This document shows, piece after piece, positions 9,001 through 15,000 of a stretch of 63,899 bases of DNA. The position numbers are program-made. This DNA is from a virus (Duplodnaviria > Heunggongvirae > Uroviricota > Caudoviricetes). The stretch is from IMG/VR virus record IMGVR_UViG_643348545_000007, one strand, 5' to 3'. Each line of letters opens with the position of its first letter. Position 1 is the stretch's first letter.

Positions 9001-12000
9001 GGAAGACATACACCAGTTTCTGGTTGCTTATGTCCAAACTCATTCGCGTACACAATGGCTGCTCGCTCCAGATTGCGTCTGTATTCTTTCTGTTGCCAGA
9101 TCACGTCCTGTGCCATGAACTTAATTGGCTTAGCGTCTTCTATGCGCTCAGGCGTTTCGTGAGTACCTTTAGCCTGAATCTGCGCTCTGCTTAGAGTAGG
9201 GCGGTGTAATACTTCTGAACTTATTGCTTCTTCGCGGGCCAGCACGCCGTTAGCTAATGCCTTTGCCTTTAAACGCTCACGACGATGAGAGCGTGAATTG
9301 CCTTTGAACTGAGTTCTGCGTGTCATATAGACCTCCTGATGAACTTTGGTGGTGTGGTAGGTGGGAGACCCATTTCGACCTGTTTCGGCCTACTTCAATT
9401 CGGCAATAGTCCCGCAGGCCCCGCCGCTTTACGTGCGACATATTCCCGTCCATGAACCCTTCACCACACCCCAAAGTTCACTTTGGTTATTGCGCTTTGT
9501 CAGCGCCGTAGATTCATATTTGAATCGTTGTATATTCACCGCCCTGGTGAGTAGTGCGTCCTGCTGATGTGTTTAGTATCACCGCCAGTGGTATTTATGT
9601 CAACACCGCCAGAGATAATTTATCACCGCAGATGGTTATCTGTATGTTTTTTATATGGATTTATTTTTTGCAGGGTTGAGTGGCTTGGGAGGTGATCGAG
9701 AGATCTGAATTGCGATGTTTAGTGAGTTGTATCTATTTATTTTTCAATAAATACATTTGGTTATGTGTCTTTAGGTGGGGGGGGGGTGAGGCAAAGAAAA
9801 CCCGGCGCTGAGGCCGGGTTTTTCTAGGCTACCAGAGACTCAATCCAAGAGTCTCTGGTATGGAATGGCAACACTCGTGCGGTATCATTAAATAGTAGTG
9901 ATAGTTGCTGTAGCTCAGGTGTTAACCCATCGCTGTCAACTATTACAAATCTATTGTTTATGTCAGGAACGACCTGACTTAAGTCAACAATCTTCCCAAC
10001 TGTTGAGTGGGCAGTATTCCATCCCTTACTGCTGGCAAGGCTTACCGTAAACCCGCGTTTTGGTGGTATTAGTCGAGACTCATTCCTTAGCGTTAACGGA
10101 ACAGTAATGTTATGCCCACTAATACCTTTCACTTTTTCCTTTAAGGCTAGTCGCTTCCCAAGCCCTGCTGATTTTAAGTAACTGATTACACATTTTTCGA
10201 ACTTATCGTCTTTGACCTCAGCATACCAATCAGCAGTTTGGGCGGATGCAAGAATCCCACCACGAATAACATTTGCAGTTACCTGTCCAACGGACGACTC
10301 ATCTGCCCACGCAGATATCTCTCCAGAGTCATTTAATGAAATTCCTTGCGAAGCGAGTGATGACCTGATCAGATCAATTTTCTTTTTAGTCAGGTGGATG
10401 CCGCGTGATTCAATATTCATCAATGTATCGCAGTAGTCTGTAACCCTATACTGACCACTCATCTCTTGAACGAATACACTTATCTGCTCACAATCATCGT
10501 AGTATGTGAATGGACTAATAACGCGCAGCAACGTGTCGCTCATTGGGTGGCATTCAAACCCGAGCTTAGATATGACTGTTGAACACGTTACATTTCCCAT
10601 GATAACTGACCTGATTTATCTTGATTAGGTAAAGGTGGGCTGCCTTCATATATGATATTAAGCGCCTCGCAAAAATAATTCCAGTAGCCAAAAAAATCAT
10701 CTGGCTTGATGTTCGTTTCAAGCTTAAGTGCAATTTCTTCCCCAGCTGATTCGAAGTACATGTGATAGTGAGGACCTCGAGCCACCTCAACAAAATCTGG
10801 ATGGTTCACTATAGATTTATTACGGTGTGGCTTGTTATCCGCAGGGTACGGATCAAGCGCGTAAATGCGCCTGTCATGAAGAAACATCACAAATGAAATC
10901 TTCACTATATCCACCCCTTCAACGATAGGAGGACGCCAGTGAAGCATAAATCTTATGCCTGTGATTGGGTTGCCAATTTCATCAAAAGCTTTGAGATCCA
11001 ATTTAAACCAGATTGGGGTTCGTCCCTCACTTCCGGTCCATGTAACTCCGCTAAAAGTTACTTTTTTCAAGCGAGTAATAGCTTGGTCAACCTCTTTCTG
11101 GGTAGGCTTAAAGTCGCCTTTTTTAGCCACTGATTCGTATCACCATGAAAGTTATTGTTAATACCTGTGCTTCTTGTCACCCAAACGTCTCTTCAGGCCA
11201 CTGACTAGCGATAACTTTCCCCACAACGGAACAACTCTCATTGCATGGGATCATTGGATATTGCGGGTTTAGTGGCTGTAGAAACACCTGACCGCTATCC
11301 CTGATCAGTTTCTTGAAGGTAAACTCATCACCACCAAGTCTGGCTATGCAGAAATCACCTGGCTCAACAGCCTGCTCAGGGTCAACCAGAATTAACATCC
11401 CGTCAGGAAAACTAGGTTTGGATCCTGTTGGCGCGGTCATGGAATTACCTTCAACCTCAAGCCAGAATGCAGAATCACTGGCTTTTTTGGTTGTGCTTAC
11501 CCATCTCTCCGCATCACCTTTGGTAAAGGTTCTAAGCTCAGGCGAGAACATCCCGGCCTGAACATGAGAAAAAACAGGGTACTCATACTCACTTCTAAGT
11601 GACGGCTGCATACTAACCGCTTCATACATCTCGTAGATTTCTCTGGCGATTGAAGGGCTAAATTCTTCAACGCTAACGTTGAGAATTTTTGCAAGCAATG
11701 CGGCGTTATAAGCATTTAATGCATTGATGCCATTAAATAAAGCACCAACGCCTGACTGTCCCATCCCCATCTTGTCTGCGACAGATTCTTGGGATAAGCC
11801 AAGCTCATTTTTCTTTTTTTCATAAATAGCTTTAAGGCGACGTGCGTCCTCAAGCTGCTCTTGTGTTAACGGTTTCTTTTTTGCGCTCATGCATTAAATC
11901 TATCACCGCAAGGGATAAATATCTAACACCGTGCGTGTTGACTATTATACCTCTAGCGGTGATAATGATTGCCTGTACTAAGGAGGTTGTATGGAACAAC

Positions 12001-15000
12001 GCATAACCCTGAAAGATTATGCAATACGCTTTGGGCAAACCAAGACGGCTAAAGATCTCGGCGTATATCAAAGCGCGATTAACAAGGCCATTCATGCAGG
12101 CCGAAAGATTTTTTTAACTATAAACGCTGATGGAAGCGTTTATGCGGAAGAAATAAAGCCCTTCCCAAGTAACAAAAAAACAACTGCATAAGTAACACCG
12201 CTATTTTCACAATGGACATTCGTCCTACGTCGCTGACAAAGCGAGCCCCAAGATATCTGACCAACTAAGGCCATATGCGTTTCCACGCATACCTTTCAAC
12301 TAGCTATTCACTATTGGAAATCTTAAGAAATGGAACAAACAAGTTACAGCAAACTGTCACAGCGCGATATCGATCGCGCTGAAACGGATTTACTTATCAA
12401 CCTGTCAGCTCTGACGCAAAGGGGACTGGCGAAGATGATTGGCTGTCATGAATCGAAGGTCAGTCGTACCGACTGGCGATACATCGCGGCGATTTTATGC
12501 GCGTTTCAGATGGCATCTGATATCAGTCCGATCAGCCGGGCTTTCCAGCATGCCATTAACGTTCATGCAAATAAAAAACGTCCGGTTGGGGCCGGACGTT
12601 CTGAGCAAATCCTGATGAATATCTGATATTCAGGCAGGGCATGGAGCAATACACGGGAATAATTCTGCCACATCTGGAAGAATTTCGCCAGCAACAACAC
12701 CAACCGCAGCAGCCTGAAGCCGATTGGGTTAACCCGGAGATACCGGGACCGTCTGTGAAGATGTGCAGTCACACCAATGTGCAGTCACACCAACCGCAGC
12801 AGCCTGAAGCCGATTGGGTTAACCCGGGAGATACCGGGACCGTCTGCGGTATGGAGTAAATCTTGTATGCGAGGGGACTATGCGTAATTACGCAACAATT
12901 TCACCTCAGTTCTGGTTAGGCGAAACAGGGAGAAAACTAAGGAAGTCTGGTCCGGAATGTATGGTAGTGGCGTTGTATATGATGACCTCGCCTCATTCCA
13001 ATATGCTGGGCCTTTATTACCTGCCTGTTTTGTACATTGCTCACGAAACCGGACTTGATCCTGAAGGGGCTTCTAAGGGGCTTCAAATGGCTTGCGAGGC
13101 TGGTTTTTGCAGCTATGACCATGATTCTGAGGTTGTATGGGTGCATGAAATGGCAGCATGGCAGGTTGGTGAATCGCTGAAACCTGGCGATAACCGTTGT
13201 GCTGGGGTAAGAAATGAATATTCCGTGTTGCTGGAAAATCCTTTTTTATCATCCTTTTATGATAGATATAAGGATGATTTCCACCTGGATGTCAGACGTG
13301 AATCATGTCGGAAAATTGAAGCCCCTTCAGAGCCTCTTTCAAGCCAAGAACAGGAACAGGAACAGGAACAAGAACAGGAAAGGGATAAAACCCTTCTGGT
13401 CCATGGCGAAAAAATCGCCACGGACCCGCAGGGGGATTTTTGTCCTGTTCTGACTGAACGTCCAGGACCAGCTGGCACGACACCGGAAGCAGATTCCGGG
13501 CGTTGTGTGCAGCAGGTGCTGATCGTCGAACCGGAGCAACAACGCCAACCGCAGCAGCCTGAAGCCGATTCCGCGATGAGCGGGAAGCCGATTGGGTTAA
13601 CCCGGGCGATGCCGGGACCGTCTGCGGGACGAGTTGATTATCCTGACGTGTTCGAACGGGTCTGGCGTGAATATCCGCATCGGGCAGGGTCAAACCCGAA
13701 GAAATCCGCGTTCAATGCCTGGAGGGCCAGATTACGCGAAGGGGTGTCACCGGATGTCGTGCTGGATGGCGTGAGGCGTTACGCAAGATACCTGGAGGCT
13801 ACCGGGAAAGCGGGAACTGAATTTGTTCAGCAGGCATCGACGTTTTTTGGCCCGAACAGGAATTTCGAAAATCCGTGGTCGCTGCCGAAGGCTGGCGCAG
13901 TCAGCCTGCGTTGCGTGAATCACATTTCTGAACCGGACACCGAAATTCCGCCGGGTTTCAGGGGGTAATCAGCCATGAAAAACATTTCGACAGGAGGGAT
14001 TCTTGAACGGGTGCGCCGTCTGGCACCACCGCACGTGGCAGCACCGTTCCGGACGACCGACGAATGGCGGGAATGGCAACTGGCTGAGGGCCGTAAGCGC
14101 AGCGAGGAAATTAACCGCCTGAATCATCAGGCGCGGGTTGAAAAAATCCTGAACCGTGCGGGCATCCAGCCGCTTCACAGGAAGTGCTCATTCGGGAACT
14201 ACCGGGTGCAGAACGACGGTCAGCGCCATGCTCTGAGCCAGGCGAAATCCATTGCCGATGAATTGATGACCGGGTGTACAAACTTCGTGTTCAGCGGGAA
14301 TCCGGGAACCGGAAAAAATCATCTGGCGGCGGCTGTGGGTAATCGTCTGCTGAAGGCCGGTAAATCCGTGATAGTGGTCACCGTGGCGGATGTGATGAGC
14401 GCGTTACATGCCAGCTATGACGACGGACTGTCAGGGGAAAAATTTTTGCGTGAACTGTGCGAAGTGGACCTCCTGGTTCTTGACGAAATTGGCATCCAGC
14501 GTGAGACGAAAAACGAGCAGGTGGTACTGCACCAGATTGTTGACCGCCGGACGGCATCACTGCGCAGTGTCGGGATGCTGACAAACCTGAATCATGCCGC
14601 AATGAGCACGCTTCTTGGTGAGAGGATTATGGACCGGATGACCATGAACGGTGGTCGTTGGGTGAATTTTAACTGGGAGAGCTGGCGGTCAAACGTTGGA
14701 CGTCAGGGTATGTGAGAATTTTTGACGAGGTAAATTTTCGATGGAAACCGTATTGCATGCACTGAAAGCGATGGGAAAAGCCAATTCTGTTGAACTGGCG
14801 GCGCGGCTTGATATCAGCCGTGAAGAAGTTCTCAACGAACTGTGGGAACTCAAAAAAAATGGCGTTGTTGATAAAACGGGTCACACCTGGTTTCTGGCTG
14901 TCGAAGGTGAAGCCGGGGTAACCGAAGGGCAGGCACTACAACCTGAAGCGCTGGATGTGGTAACCGAAGAGGTTGCTCCAAAAGTTACCGCAGACATGAT

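Follow-up and report, generated by a model that had tools for sequence, protein, structure and literature searches.

Closest Described Systems and Composition of the Locus

The N protein of phage H-19B and its nutR site represent an experimentally characterised antitermination pair conferring nut-dependent read-through of terminators (PMC3526286). The arginine-rich motif (ARM) of this protein comprises 12-RSRRRER-18, its C-terminal domain binds RNA polymerase (RNAP), and the corresponding nutR site features two hairpins as well as a boxB that was footprinted (PMC3526286). The substitutions R15C/P and R18P abolish the function of H-19B N, and no change of R14 turned up in the screen for loss-of-function mutants (PMC3526286). 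For the gene 24/nut system of phage P22 (NC_002371), a structure of the N peptide-boxB complex is available (PDB 1A4T, cited in PMC6023938). The combination of an H-19B-like antitermination module with lambda-type immunity was previously known from HK97 and from records of wild lambda-immunity phages.

The early regulatory region described here belongs to a stx-negative, 933W-like lambdoid E. coli prophage, and was analyzed within a DNA stretch of 63.9 kb, hereafter referred to as the window. As deduced from sequence comparison, the region very probably represents a lambda-specificity cassette (OL1–3/pL, cI, OR1–3/pRM/pR, and cro) set between the two halves of an N antitermination module of the H-19B/933W/HK97 type, with N and nutL being located on the left side and nutR on the right side. 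In the segment map, positions 8943–9567 (98.9%) and 12,184–12,610 were 933W-like, positions 9536–9825 and 11,177–12,205 were lambda-like, and segment comparison revealed no P22 DNA similarity across the N/nut region.

The hybrid is real, but was described previously, and its arrangement is ordinary. In HK97 (NC_002167, 26.0–29.7 kb), mEp234, and HK106 (EF120460 and EF120461), the same N allele (124/127 residues identical), the same OR1 variant, and the same joints were found; HK97 and mEp234 also feature identical nutL and nutR boxB sequences, a cI protein of 100% identity, and likewise a non-lambda cII. Differences from HK97 concern three residues of N (R14H, R100K, and L113I), the nutR boxA (CGCUAUUUU, the 933W type, in the window vs. 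CGCUCUUUU in the HK97/mEp234 group), and cII, which is 69–72% identical to that of the HK97/mEp234 group. Moreover, the interval between Timm and cI contains gp48/gp49 in HK97, hicAB and an additional ORF in mEp234, and a DUF6978/DUF1828 pair in the window, and the rest of the window genome is 933W-like and not HK97-like. The closest sequenced phage is PhiR5_2 (PV340546), in which the genes from int through the late region are arranged as in the window, and which features a left junction of 100% identity, a late region of 98% identity, and cI and cro of the lambda type. PhiR5_2 encodes R14 in N and a single 253-aa gene in the rex slot, and does not carry five private substitutions of the OR region.

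H-19B and 933W (AF034975 and NC_000924; Neely and Friedman; Muteeb et al. 2012, PMC3526286) encode N proteins that are 97–99% identical to that of the window and feature the same architecture of boxA, spacer hairpins, and GACAA boxB; their repressors and operators are their own and unrelated (the window cI is 21.7% identical to 933W cI), and their cargo is an stk kinase. The window agrees with lambda (J02459, 35.5–38.25 kb) in the hexamers of pL and pR and exactly in OL1–3, OR2, and OR3, and resembles it in the Timm region, but contains neither lambda N nor lambda cII, no rexA/rexB, and no boxB of the lambda type with its GAAGA or GAAAA loop.

The N Gene and Its nut Sites

The N gene (8943–9326, minus strand) is an intact ORF encoding 127 amino acids, as proposed in the preliminary description. 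Its product represents the H-19B/933W/HK97 allele, with 126/127 residues identical to 933W N, 123/127 to H-19B N, and 124/127 to the N proteins of HK97 and mEp234. It was assigned to PHROG 271 (anti-termination protein N-like) and scored 53.5 bits for the Pfam family N_peptide (PF25694), the gathering threshold being 27.9; its similarity to lambda N was not significant (E = 1.5). Its ARM reads RSHRRER, corresponding to R14H relative to RSRRRER. The exact protein was found in none of the phage records of the collection and on 562 contigs. In the RefSeq annotation (PGAP) of matching genomes, the N ORF was not called, and just a 69-bp ‘regulator’ pseudogene fragment is present, probably reflecting an absent family model and not damage of the gene.

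Hairpins with a GACAA pentaloop on a 5-bp stem, i.e., boxB elements of the P22 class, are present at both nut positions flanking the lambda-type operators, cI, and cro, as the preliminary description had stated. The nutL boxB (GCGCUGACAAAGCGC in RNA sense; 9492–9506, minus strand) and the nutR boxB (UCGCUGACAAAGCGA in RNA sense; 12,230–12,244, plus strand) have the loop and a 13-nt core in common, but they are not the same 15-nt hairpin throughout, since the outermost pair, which closes the stem at its base, is G-C in the left hairpin but U-A in the right one. Their predicted folds amounted to −7.1 kcal/mol (nutL) and −5.6 kcal/mol (nutR). Both elements are annotated as nutL and nutR boxB in the mEp234 record EF120460. 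Conservation was examined in every phage checked that carries the N allele of the window, namely 933W, H-19B, HK97, and mEp234, and GACAA hairpins were found at both nut positions in all of them, with boxB sequences identical to those of the window at nutL as well as nutR; the lack of conservation that would have refuted the preliminary description was thus not observed. VT2-Sakai and epsilon34 possess the same scaffold of spacer hairpins and stem, but their loop is a GAAA tetraloop and their ARM differs; thus, boxB loop and N allele covary in the phages compared.

The putative nutL boxA (CGCACUACU; 9550–9558, minus strand), whose position was transferred from the annotation of EF120460, extends from +11 to +19 relative to the pL start site. 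Between boxA and boxB, two nutL spacer hairpins were predicted by folding (9511–9549, minus strand, one at 9511–9526 and the other at 9537–9549), which are kept in 933W, H-19B, and HK97. The 75-nt leader containing nutL reached a minimum free energy of −19.8 kcal/mol (z = −4.7) and forms three hairpins in the predicted fold. On the right side, boxA (CGCUAUUUU; 12,199–12,207, plus strand) equals that of 933W and H-19B and is located where the mEp234 annotation places this element, followed by a predicted spacer hairpin, GGAC-AUUC-GUCC (12,214–12,225, plus strand). From the cro stop codon to boxB, nutR is identical to that of H-19B and 933W, while nutL differs by 1 nt from H-19B nutL and by 0–2 nt within the H-19B/933W group.

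Immunity Region

The left operator region (9575–9637, minus strand) comprises pL (−10 at 9575–9580 and −35 at 9598–9603), OL1 (9577–9593), OL2 (9601–9617), and OL3 (9621–9637). The right operator region (11,897–11,966) comprises OR3 (11,901–11,917), OR2 (11,924–11,940), OR1 (11,948–11,964), pRM (−10 at 11,897–11,902), and pR (11,938–11,966). The promoters pL and pR were the two best promoter matches (10/12 each), and their hexamers equal those of lambda. Immunity had been described as lambda-identical, but is lambda-like, with exact lambda sequence in five of the six operators (OL1, OL2, OL3, OR2, and OR3); OR1 carries a single G-to-A substitution in common with HK97 and mEp234, cI (11,177–11,890, minus strand) is identical to lambda cI at 235/237 positions (T3A and K71N) and to the cI proteins of HK97 and mEp234 at 237/237, Cro (11,991–12,191, plus strand) is identical to lambda Cro at 64/66 positions (M12I and V55I), and rexAB is replaced. 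The hallmarks of imm-lambda were found in the sequence, i.e., cI, Cro, and six 17-bp operators with lambda spacing that overlap pL, pR, and pRM. We infer the immunity phenotype from the identity to HK97 and mEp234, and a host carrying this prophage should be immune to lambda and HK97.

A Timm-like terminator at the end of the pRM operon (9793–9822, minus strand) matches the mEp234 region annotated as Timm, and related sequence is present at 933W tM. Downstream of nutR, a cII-like activator (12,330–12,626, plus strand; Pfam Phage_CII, 91.6 bits) represents a non-lambda mosaic allele with 77.6% identity to 933W cII and 25.7% to lambda cII. The terminator scan also identified an oop-like terminator on the strand opposite cII (12,575–12,602). 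Five substitutions private to the window and its closest genome are located in the vicinity of pRM +1, beside OR1, and at position +1 of pR.

Recombination Joints, Proposed Mechanism, and Distribution

The joints had been expected between the nut sites and the operators, and both were located there. The left joint (9553–9568, minus strand) is a 16-nt sequence, ATCAGCAGGACGCACT, common to lambda and H-19B, with 933W being one base off. Transcription from pL starts at 9568, and the joint therefore makes up the initial 16 nt of the transcript; lambda-type sequence extends from 9569 upwards, while 9552 is the first base specific to H-19B. The right joint was placed at cro codon 65 (12,183–12,185, plus strand), where the similarity to lambda ends and that to 933W/H-19B begins (CTGCATAAGTAACACCGCT, 12,184–12,202), T12185 being the 933W-type base. 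Both joints are equal in HK97, mEp234, HK106, and PhiR5_2, and the hybrid, as judged from these shared joints, is inherited and was not formed in the window phage; a reading of it as a new feature of this phage was thus not upheld. EF120460 already contains the annotated elements. The GenBank series EF120455-61 is one that we take to originate from Degnan et al. 2007 (Mol Microbiol 64:232).

According to the proposed mechanism, inactivation of cI would cause pL and pR to fire, and each transcript would carry a nut site in which boxA is followed by one or two spacer hairpins and by boxB with its GACAA pentaloop. N, translated off the pL transcript, would bind boxB through its arginine-rich motif (residues ~10–24) and, together with host Nus factors, would make RNAP resist the terminators located downstream. 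The polymerase would be contacted by the C-terminal part of N, which in this allele resembles that of P22. We infer activity of the window allele from its similarity to the characterised H-19B protein. Since N is expected to recognise its own boxB only and the operators are enclosed by the two nut sites, the immunity cassette would be exchangeable as a unit, possibly by recombination within short sequences common to heteroimmune phages, in this case the initial 16 nt of the pL transcript and the final codons of cro. The locus thereby illustrates the modular evolution of lambdoid phages, with repressor switch and antitermination being separable cassettes that are exchanged at such common sequences, here where pL transcription begins and where cro ends. 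As this principle and the specific combination were already documented, the finding adds a member and not a concept.

A natural swap partner was identified in contig L017, which carries the identical R14H N gene and left arm beside an H-19B-type immunity region, and whose identity to the window starts exactly at the 16-mer at pL +1. The occurrence of R14H N beside two different immunity regions indicates that N travelled by phage recombination. Of 5426 complete E. coli genomes, 111 matched the query spanning the left junction and 118 that spanning the right junction over the entire query (about 2%), as did HK97, mEp234, HK106, and PhiR5_2. The E. coli carriers include O104:H4 outbreak strains. 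Some practical value of the analysis lies in the presence of this prophage in the O104:H4 outbreak lineage, in the expected immunity of its host to lambda and HK97, in the omission of its N gene from the RefSeq annotation, and in the cargo of its rex slot. Minor new aspects are R14H in the ARM of N and the two cargo genes as a candidate defence pair. As a lesser possibility than an exclusion function of these cargo genes, R14H may retune the affinity of N for boxB in a lineage including the O104:H4 outbreak strain.

Alternative Interpretations

One alternative takes up the preliminary description of N and boxB as P22-type elements and assumes that these recombined with lambda immunity to form a noteworthy new circuit unique to this phage. 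The nutL boxB is indeed identical to that of P22 nutL (15/15), the GACAA loop is common to both systems, and BLASTP aligned residues 99–127 of N with P22 gp24 at 67% identity (E = 3e-10), this C-terminal stretch of about 30 residues including the common tail LP.VA.YAAG.RKSKQ.TAR. The proposed likeness of the ARM turned out to be weak: GN..R.ER is in common with P22, but a hand count over the N sequences yielded matches at 6/15 positions with P22 vs. 5/14 with lambda, and the RRER core in common with P22 is generic. Full-length similarity between N (127 aa) and gp24 (100 aa) was absent in BLASTP and global alignment, the global identity being 27% vs. 99.2% to 933W N. Furthermore, the P22 nutR boxB (CCGCCGACAACGCGG) differs from that of the window in its stem, P22 nut sites contain no spacer hairpins and feature a different boxA context, and nutL and the leader with its spacer hairpins and boxA are H-19B/933W DNA (98.9%). 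Taking into account the N allele, the leader DNA, the lack of P22 DNA similarity, and the joints recurring in HK97, mEp234, HK106, PhiR5_2, and ~111 genomes, a P22 origin and the uniqueness of the hybrid were refuted, and this scenario is very unlikely. Even less credible is the assumption that the GACAA hairpins, being short (15 nt), represent chance stem-loops or terminators. Perfect hairpins of this kind with a 5-bp stem occur just twice on both strands of the window, and their 13-nt core is present in two copies vs. 0.08 expected from shuffled sequences, with none of 100 shuffles reaching two. Both are sense-oriented within the pL and pR leaders, lack a U-tract, and were not called by the terminator scan; in addition, the hairpin equals the footprinted H-19B nutR boxB (PMC3526286), and the covariation of its loop with the N allele likewise argues for N-utilisation sites, effectively refuting this interpretation.

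It is also rather improbable that the locus is a decaying remnant of a cryptic prophage, in which R14H and the private promoter changes disable antitermination or the switch. R14H resides within the motif in which neighboring substitutions (R15C/P and R18P) eliminate H-19B N function, the viable relative PhiR5_2 has retained R14, the five private substitutions lie close to pRM +1, OR1, and pR +1, and at N, PGAP recorded no more than a pseudogene fragment. However, R14 is missing from the loss-of-function mutants recovered for H-19B N (PMC3526286), N has an uninterrupted ORF, 562 contigs carry the exact R14H protein, which accompanies two different immunity regions, and the PGAP call is probably attributable to the lacking family model. 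Operators, cI, cro, cII, and nut sites are all intact, the IS insertions of S1-CAM-02-A are absent from the window, and the late region is 98% identical to that of PhiR5_2.

Cargo Genes in the rex Slot

The 1.35 kb interval between the Timm-like terminator and cI (9824–11,130) contains neither rexA nor rexB nor any lambda similarity, and holds two ORFs unrelated to rexAB, which constitute non-lambda cargo. A DUF1828 protein of 258 aa (9824–10,600, minus strand) is encoded at the rexB position, and a DUF6978-like protein of 180 aa (10,588–11,130, minus strand; sub-threshold score of 23.6 bits for Pfam DUF6978; PHROG 2017) at the rexA position. Among the PADLOC models, PDC-M24B (E = 5e-7) and, for the 180-aa protein, PDC-M24A (E = 4e-4) gave hits, both being weak, and PADLOC gives no description for PDC-M24. 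Because of its PDC prefix, we take PDC-M24 to be an unvalidated candidate defence system. The pair in the rex slot is thus far an unstudied candidate for defence. Tentatively, the overlapping genes may represent an uncharacterised prophage exclusion system with a nuclease effector, although this reading is doubtful. Such a system would share the pRM transcript with cI, the cargo genes being presumed to be expressed, its effector would combine a T3SS-chaperone/YbjN-like N-terminal domain with a PD-(D/E)xK-like C-terminal domain, and the gene pair would move among heteroimmune lambdoid phages in the repressor-proximal slot. The DUF6978-like/DUF1828 pair is kept together in ev017, with 51% and 41% identity.

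Early Control Region and Type of N

The region studied represents the early control region of a stx-negative lambdoid prophage of about 64 kb. Its comparison with characterized phages identified the element as a known natural hybrid, in which lambda immunity is flanked by an N–nut module of the H-19B/933W/HK97 type. The N antiterminator gene (8943..9326, minus strand) is intact and comprises 127 codons. Identical residues were found at 126 of 127 positions in 933W N, at 124 in the N proteins of HK97 and mEp234, and at 123 in H-19B N, while no significant similarity to lambda N was obtained. 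The preliminary description had regarded this protein as a P22-type N featuring a P22-like arginine-rich motif (ARM) and C-terminus. Only the C-terminal part of this proposal could be retained: BLASTP aligned P22 gp24 with no more than the 30 C-terminal residues (67% identity, E = 3e-10), global identity amounted to 27%, and N is instead the H-19B/933W/HK97 allele. Within the ARM, matches counted by hand were found at 6 of 15 positions for P22 and at 5 of 14 for lambda, which points to a weak resemblance to P22 and leaves the C-terminal tail as the P22-like part. In H-19B N, the C-terminal domain has been described as the RNA-polymerase-binding domain (PMC3526286). A search of the N sequence against PDB chains gave no match at E ≤ 10.

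RefSeq PGAP leaves the intact 127-codon N open reading frame unannotated in matching genomes. Solely a 69-bp "regulator" pseudogene fragment is annotated there (20044-20112 in the contig of strain S1-CAM-02-A, L006, and 3044-3112 in a further contig, L007), which corresponds to the P22-like C-terminal tail (window 8943-9011). Directly downstream of N, a 238-aa ORF (8226-8942, minus strand) belonging to PHROG 2539 is kept beside N in every context seen; similarity of its middle part to the endonuclease VII, HNH, and Lar-like zinc-finger families was weak.

Nut Sites and BoxB Hairpins

Both nut sites are composed of a boxA, spacer hairpins, and a boxB. In nutL, a putative boxA (9550-9558) is followed by two spacer hairpins and the boxB hairpin GCGCUGACAAAGCGC (RNA sense; 9492-9506, minus strand), and in nutR, boxA (12199-12207) is followed by one spacer hairpin and the boxB hairpin UCGCUGACAAAGCGA (RNA sense; 12230-12244, plus strand). 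N and the two hairpins were thus located exactly where they had initially been placed. The boxB hairpins fold as simple stem-loops and are the only perfect GACAA hairpins with a 5-bp stem in the window, both strands having been scanned; their common 13-nt core occurs in two copies versus 0.08 expected from shuffles. A function as terminators was ruled out, since the hairpins are devoid of a U-tract and were not called by the terminator scan. They are not the same 15-nt hairpin, as had been assumed, because nutL has a G-C and nutR a U-A as the outermost pair at the stem base. Likewise, the assignment to the P22 boxB applies to nutL, whose boxB is identical to that of P22 nutL at 15 of 15 positions, but not to nutR, as the P22 nutR boxB differs.

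The stretch comprising N, nutL, and the sequence up to the pL transcript start is 98.9% identical to 933W at the DNA level. The nutR segment that begins with the cro stop codon and ends with boxB is identical to H-19B, and nutL deviates from H-19B by one base. The architecture of both nut sites is of the H-19B type. For H-19B, the ARM of N was defined as 12-RSRRRER-18, nutR was described to hold two hairpins, and N-dependent antitermination was demonstrated on this site (PMC3526286). Considering the N identities, the H-19B/933W-type nut DNA, and the mismatch to the P22 nutR boxB, the module is therefore most aptly designated an H-19B/933W/HK97-type N–nut module with a P22-class GACAA boxB loop.

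A lack of conservation of the GACAA hairpins at the nut positions of related phages had been named as a ground for refutation; both hairpins are, however, unchanged in 933W, H-19B, HK97, and mEp234. In VT2-Sakai and epsilon34, which encode a more distant N with a different ARM, the spacer hairpin and the boxB stem are kept, and the loop is a GAAA tetraloop. Loop and N allele thus vary together, the behavior expected of a cognate protein–RNA pair.

The R14H Allele of N

Codon 14 of N (9285-9287, minus strand) encodes a histidine within the ARM (R14H; RSHRRER versus RSRRRER in the 933W/H-19B/HK97 allele). H-19B N cannot do without the neighboring R15 and R18 (PMC3526286), and R14 is retained in the viable phage PhiR5_2. 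None of the phage records in the collection searched contained the exact R14H protein. It was detected on 562 public contigs, the 933W allele being present on at least 1000, and occurs in O104:H4 outbreak genomes as well as together with two different immunity regions. R14H N is therefore a circulating allele, which is probably functional.

Immunity Switch

Between the nut sites, OL1, OL2, OL3, OR2, and OR3 match the lambda operators exactly, and OR1 carries a single G-to-A change relative to lambda that is also found in HK97 and mEp234. The cI repressor is identical to lambda cI at 235 of 237 positions (T3A, K71N) and to the HK97 and mEp234 repressors at all 237, and Cro matches lambda Cro at 64 of 66 positions. 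Furthermore, pL and pR possess the lambda hexamers and represent the top two promoter matches of the region. By sequence, the immunity specificity is thus that of lambda; the wording "lambda-identical", as used in the preliminary description, goes too far in view of the OR1 change, the substitutions in cI and Cro, and the replacement of rexAB. A literature search for statements on homoimmunity of HK97 and lambda returned nothing usable.

Five substitutions (11891, 11893, 11947, 11968, and 11973) are shared exclusively by the window and its nearest genome, strain S1-CAM-02-A. Two of them are located at -1 and -3 relative to the leaderless start of cI (pRM +1), one beside OR1, one in the pR discriminator, and one at pR +1; no operator contains any of the five. 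At these positions, O104:H4, PhiR5_2, HK97, and mEp234 have the same bases, as does lambda, which differs elsewhere in the same 121-bp stretch (OR1 and cI codon 3). The five substitutions belong to a patch of eight differences at 11789-11973.

Joints and Origin of the Hybrid

Comparison with lambda, H-19B, and 933W placed one joint on each side between operators and nut site, as had been predicted. On the left, lambda-type sequence extends down to 9569 and H-19B/933W-type sequence follows from 9552 onward, the joint lying in the 16 nt that start at pL +1 (ATCAGCAGGACGCACT, 9553-9568), which are common to lambda and H-19B and deviate by one base in 933W. The right joint (12183-12185) falls on codon 65 of cro, with boxA following 14 nt downstream; the lambda type ends at 12183 and the 933W/H-19B type starts at 12184-12185.

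An origin of the hybrid within this prophage was ruled out, because identical joints are present in HK97, mEp234, HK106, and PhiR5_2. Full-length matches to queries spanning the left and right junctions were recovered from 111 and 118, respectively, of 5,426 complete E. coli genomes, and the entire 3.8-kb region including the cargo genes showed 99.5–99.9% identity in 22 genomes, some of them being O104:H4 outbreak strains. In GenBank record EF120460, exactly these hairpins are annotated as nutL and nutR boxB, and a "boundary sequence" marks one end of the region sequenced. This record is part of the EF120455-61 series, presumably that of Degnan et al. The hybrid is accordingly an inherited one, sharing its joints with HK97 and wild lambda-immunity phages, and is ordinary for a specialist; mildly new items are limited to the R14H allele with its changed ARM and to the uncharacterised pair of cargo genes.

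Contig CBKHLQ010000036 of assembly GCA_966573945.1 harbors the same R14H N and left arm (window 5500-9568) joined to an H-19B/933W-type immunity region encoding a 234-aa repressor, a DUF3024 protein, and a Ser/Thr kinase (stk). The point at which its identity with the window sets in is precisely pL +1, which makes this contig a direct example of exchange and a natural immunity-swap partner.

When activities known from H-19B and lambda are carried over to the identities, folds, and positions observed here, the cI/Cro/operator switch would operate in the lambda manner and provide immunity to lambda and HK97. Upon derepression, the pL and pR transcripts would expose the nut RNAs, the ARM of N would bind the GACAA boxB, and N would recruit Nus factors via boxA and spacer and modify RNA polymerase, so that transcription would pass the terminators downstream and reach the genes for recombination and replication. 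N would be specific for its own nut RNAs, which lie outside the operators, and therefore any immunity cassette could fit in between, breaking neither system.

Cargo Genes in the Rex Slot

The 1.35 kb between a Timm-like terminator (9793-9822) and cI, occupied by rexB and rexA in lambda, had no similarity to lambda. An overlapping gene pair (9824-11130, minus strand) replaces rexAB and encodes a 180-aa DUF6978-like and a 258-aa DUF1828 protein. The two components of PDC-M24, a candidate system in PADLOC, were matched weakly (B, E = 5e-7; A, E = 4e-4). The structural model of the DUF1828 protein suggests a chaperone-like N-terminal and a PD-(D/E)xK-like C-terminal domain, and its Foldseek search against PDB yielded no significant match; the AF2 model of the 180-aa protein (pLDDT 56) was too poor for a fold search. 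The heteroimmune phages ev017, ev207, and PhiR63_2 also carry the pair in this slot. Literature searches for PhiR5_2 and for DUF1828/DUF6978/PDC-M24 provided nothing usable.

Downstream Region and Remaining Prophage

The cII-like gene (12330-12626) is a mosaic allele. Its N-terminal ~70 residues are near H-19B/933W cII and are followed by a divergent middle part and a tail of the lambda type (NKKRP...SEQI), for which the DNA match at 12570-12626 amounts to 77%. The opposite strand holds an oop-like terminator (12575-12602). The primer CACGCATACCTTTCAACTA, used for cloning the E. coli Nissle "phage repressor pr" (PMC5987069), matches the window at 12284-12302, just upstream of this gene, which raises the possibility that the Nissle protein is a homologue of cII rather than a repressor of the cI type. 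Further downstream, a unit of ~90 bp occurs twice inside a 72-aa ORF (12641..12859; units at 12690-12849) and again inside the O-like replication gene (12880..13968; 13535-13627), and a (CAGGAA)n run at 13345-13386 encodes (EQ)n. These repeats may represent origin iterons or a partial duplication.

The late half of the window featured 98% identity to PhiR5_2 and about 90% to the virion module of Stx2a-converting phages. The prophage of strain S1-CAM-02-A, located in ynfG, is otherwise near-identical to the window, of which positions 1-2246 (ORFs 1..579 and 576..1910, minus strand) are unmatched at its integrase end; the IS1, IS21, and IS3 insertions of this strain are absent from the window. 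No tRNA genes were found in the window. RNA features exceeding the Rfam gathering score were isrK (17670-17747) adjoining a C4 antisense RNA (17773-17857), two tandem copies of STnc100 (21495-21688 and 21964-22172), and sRNA-Xcc1 (62233-62318, minus strand).
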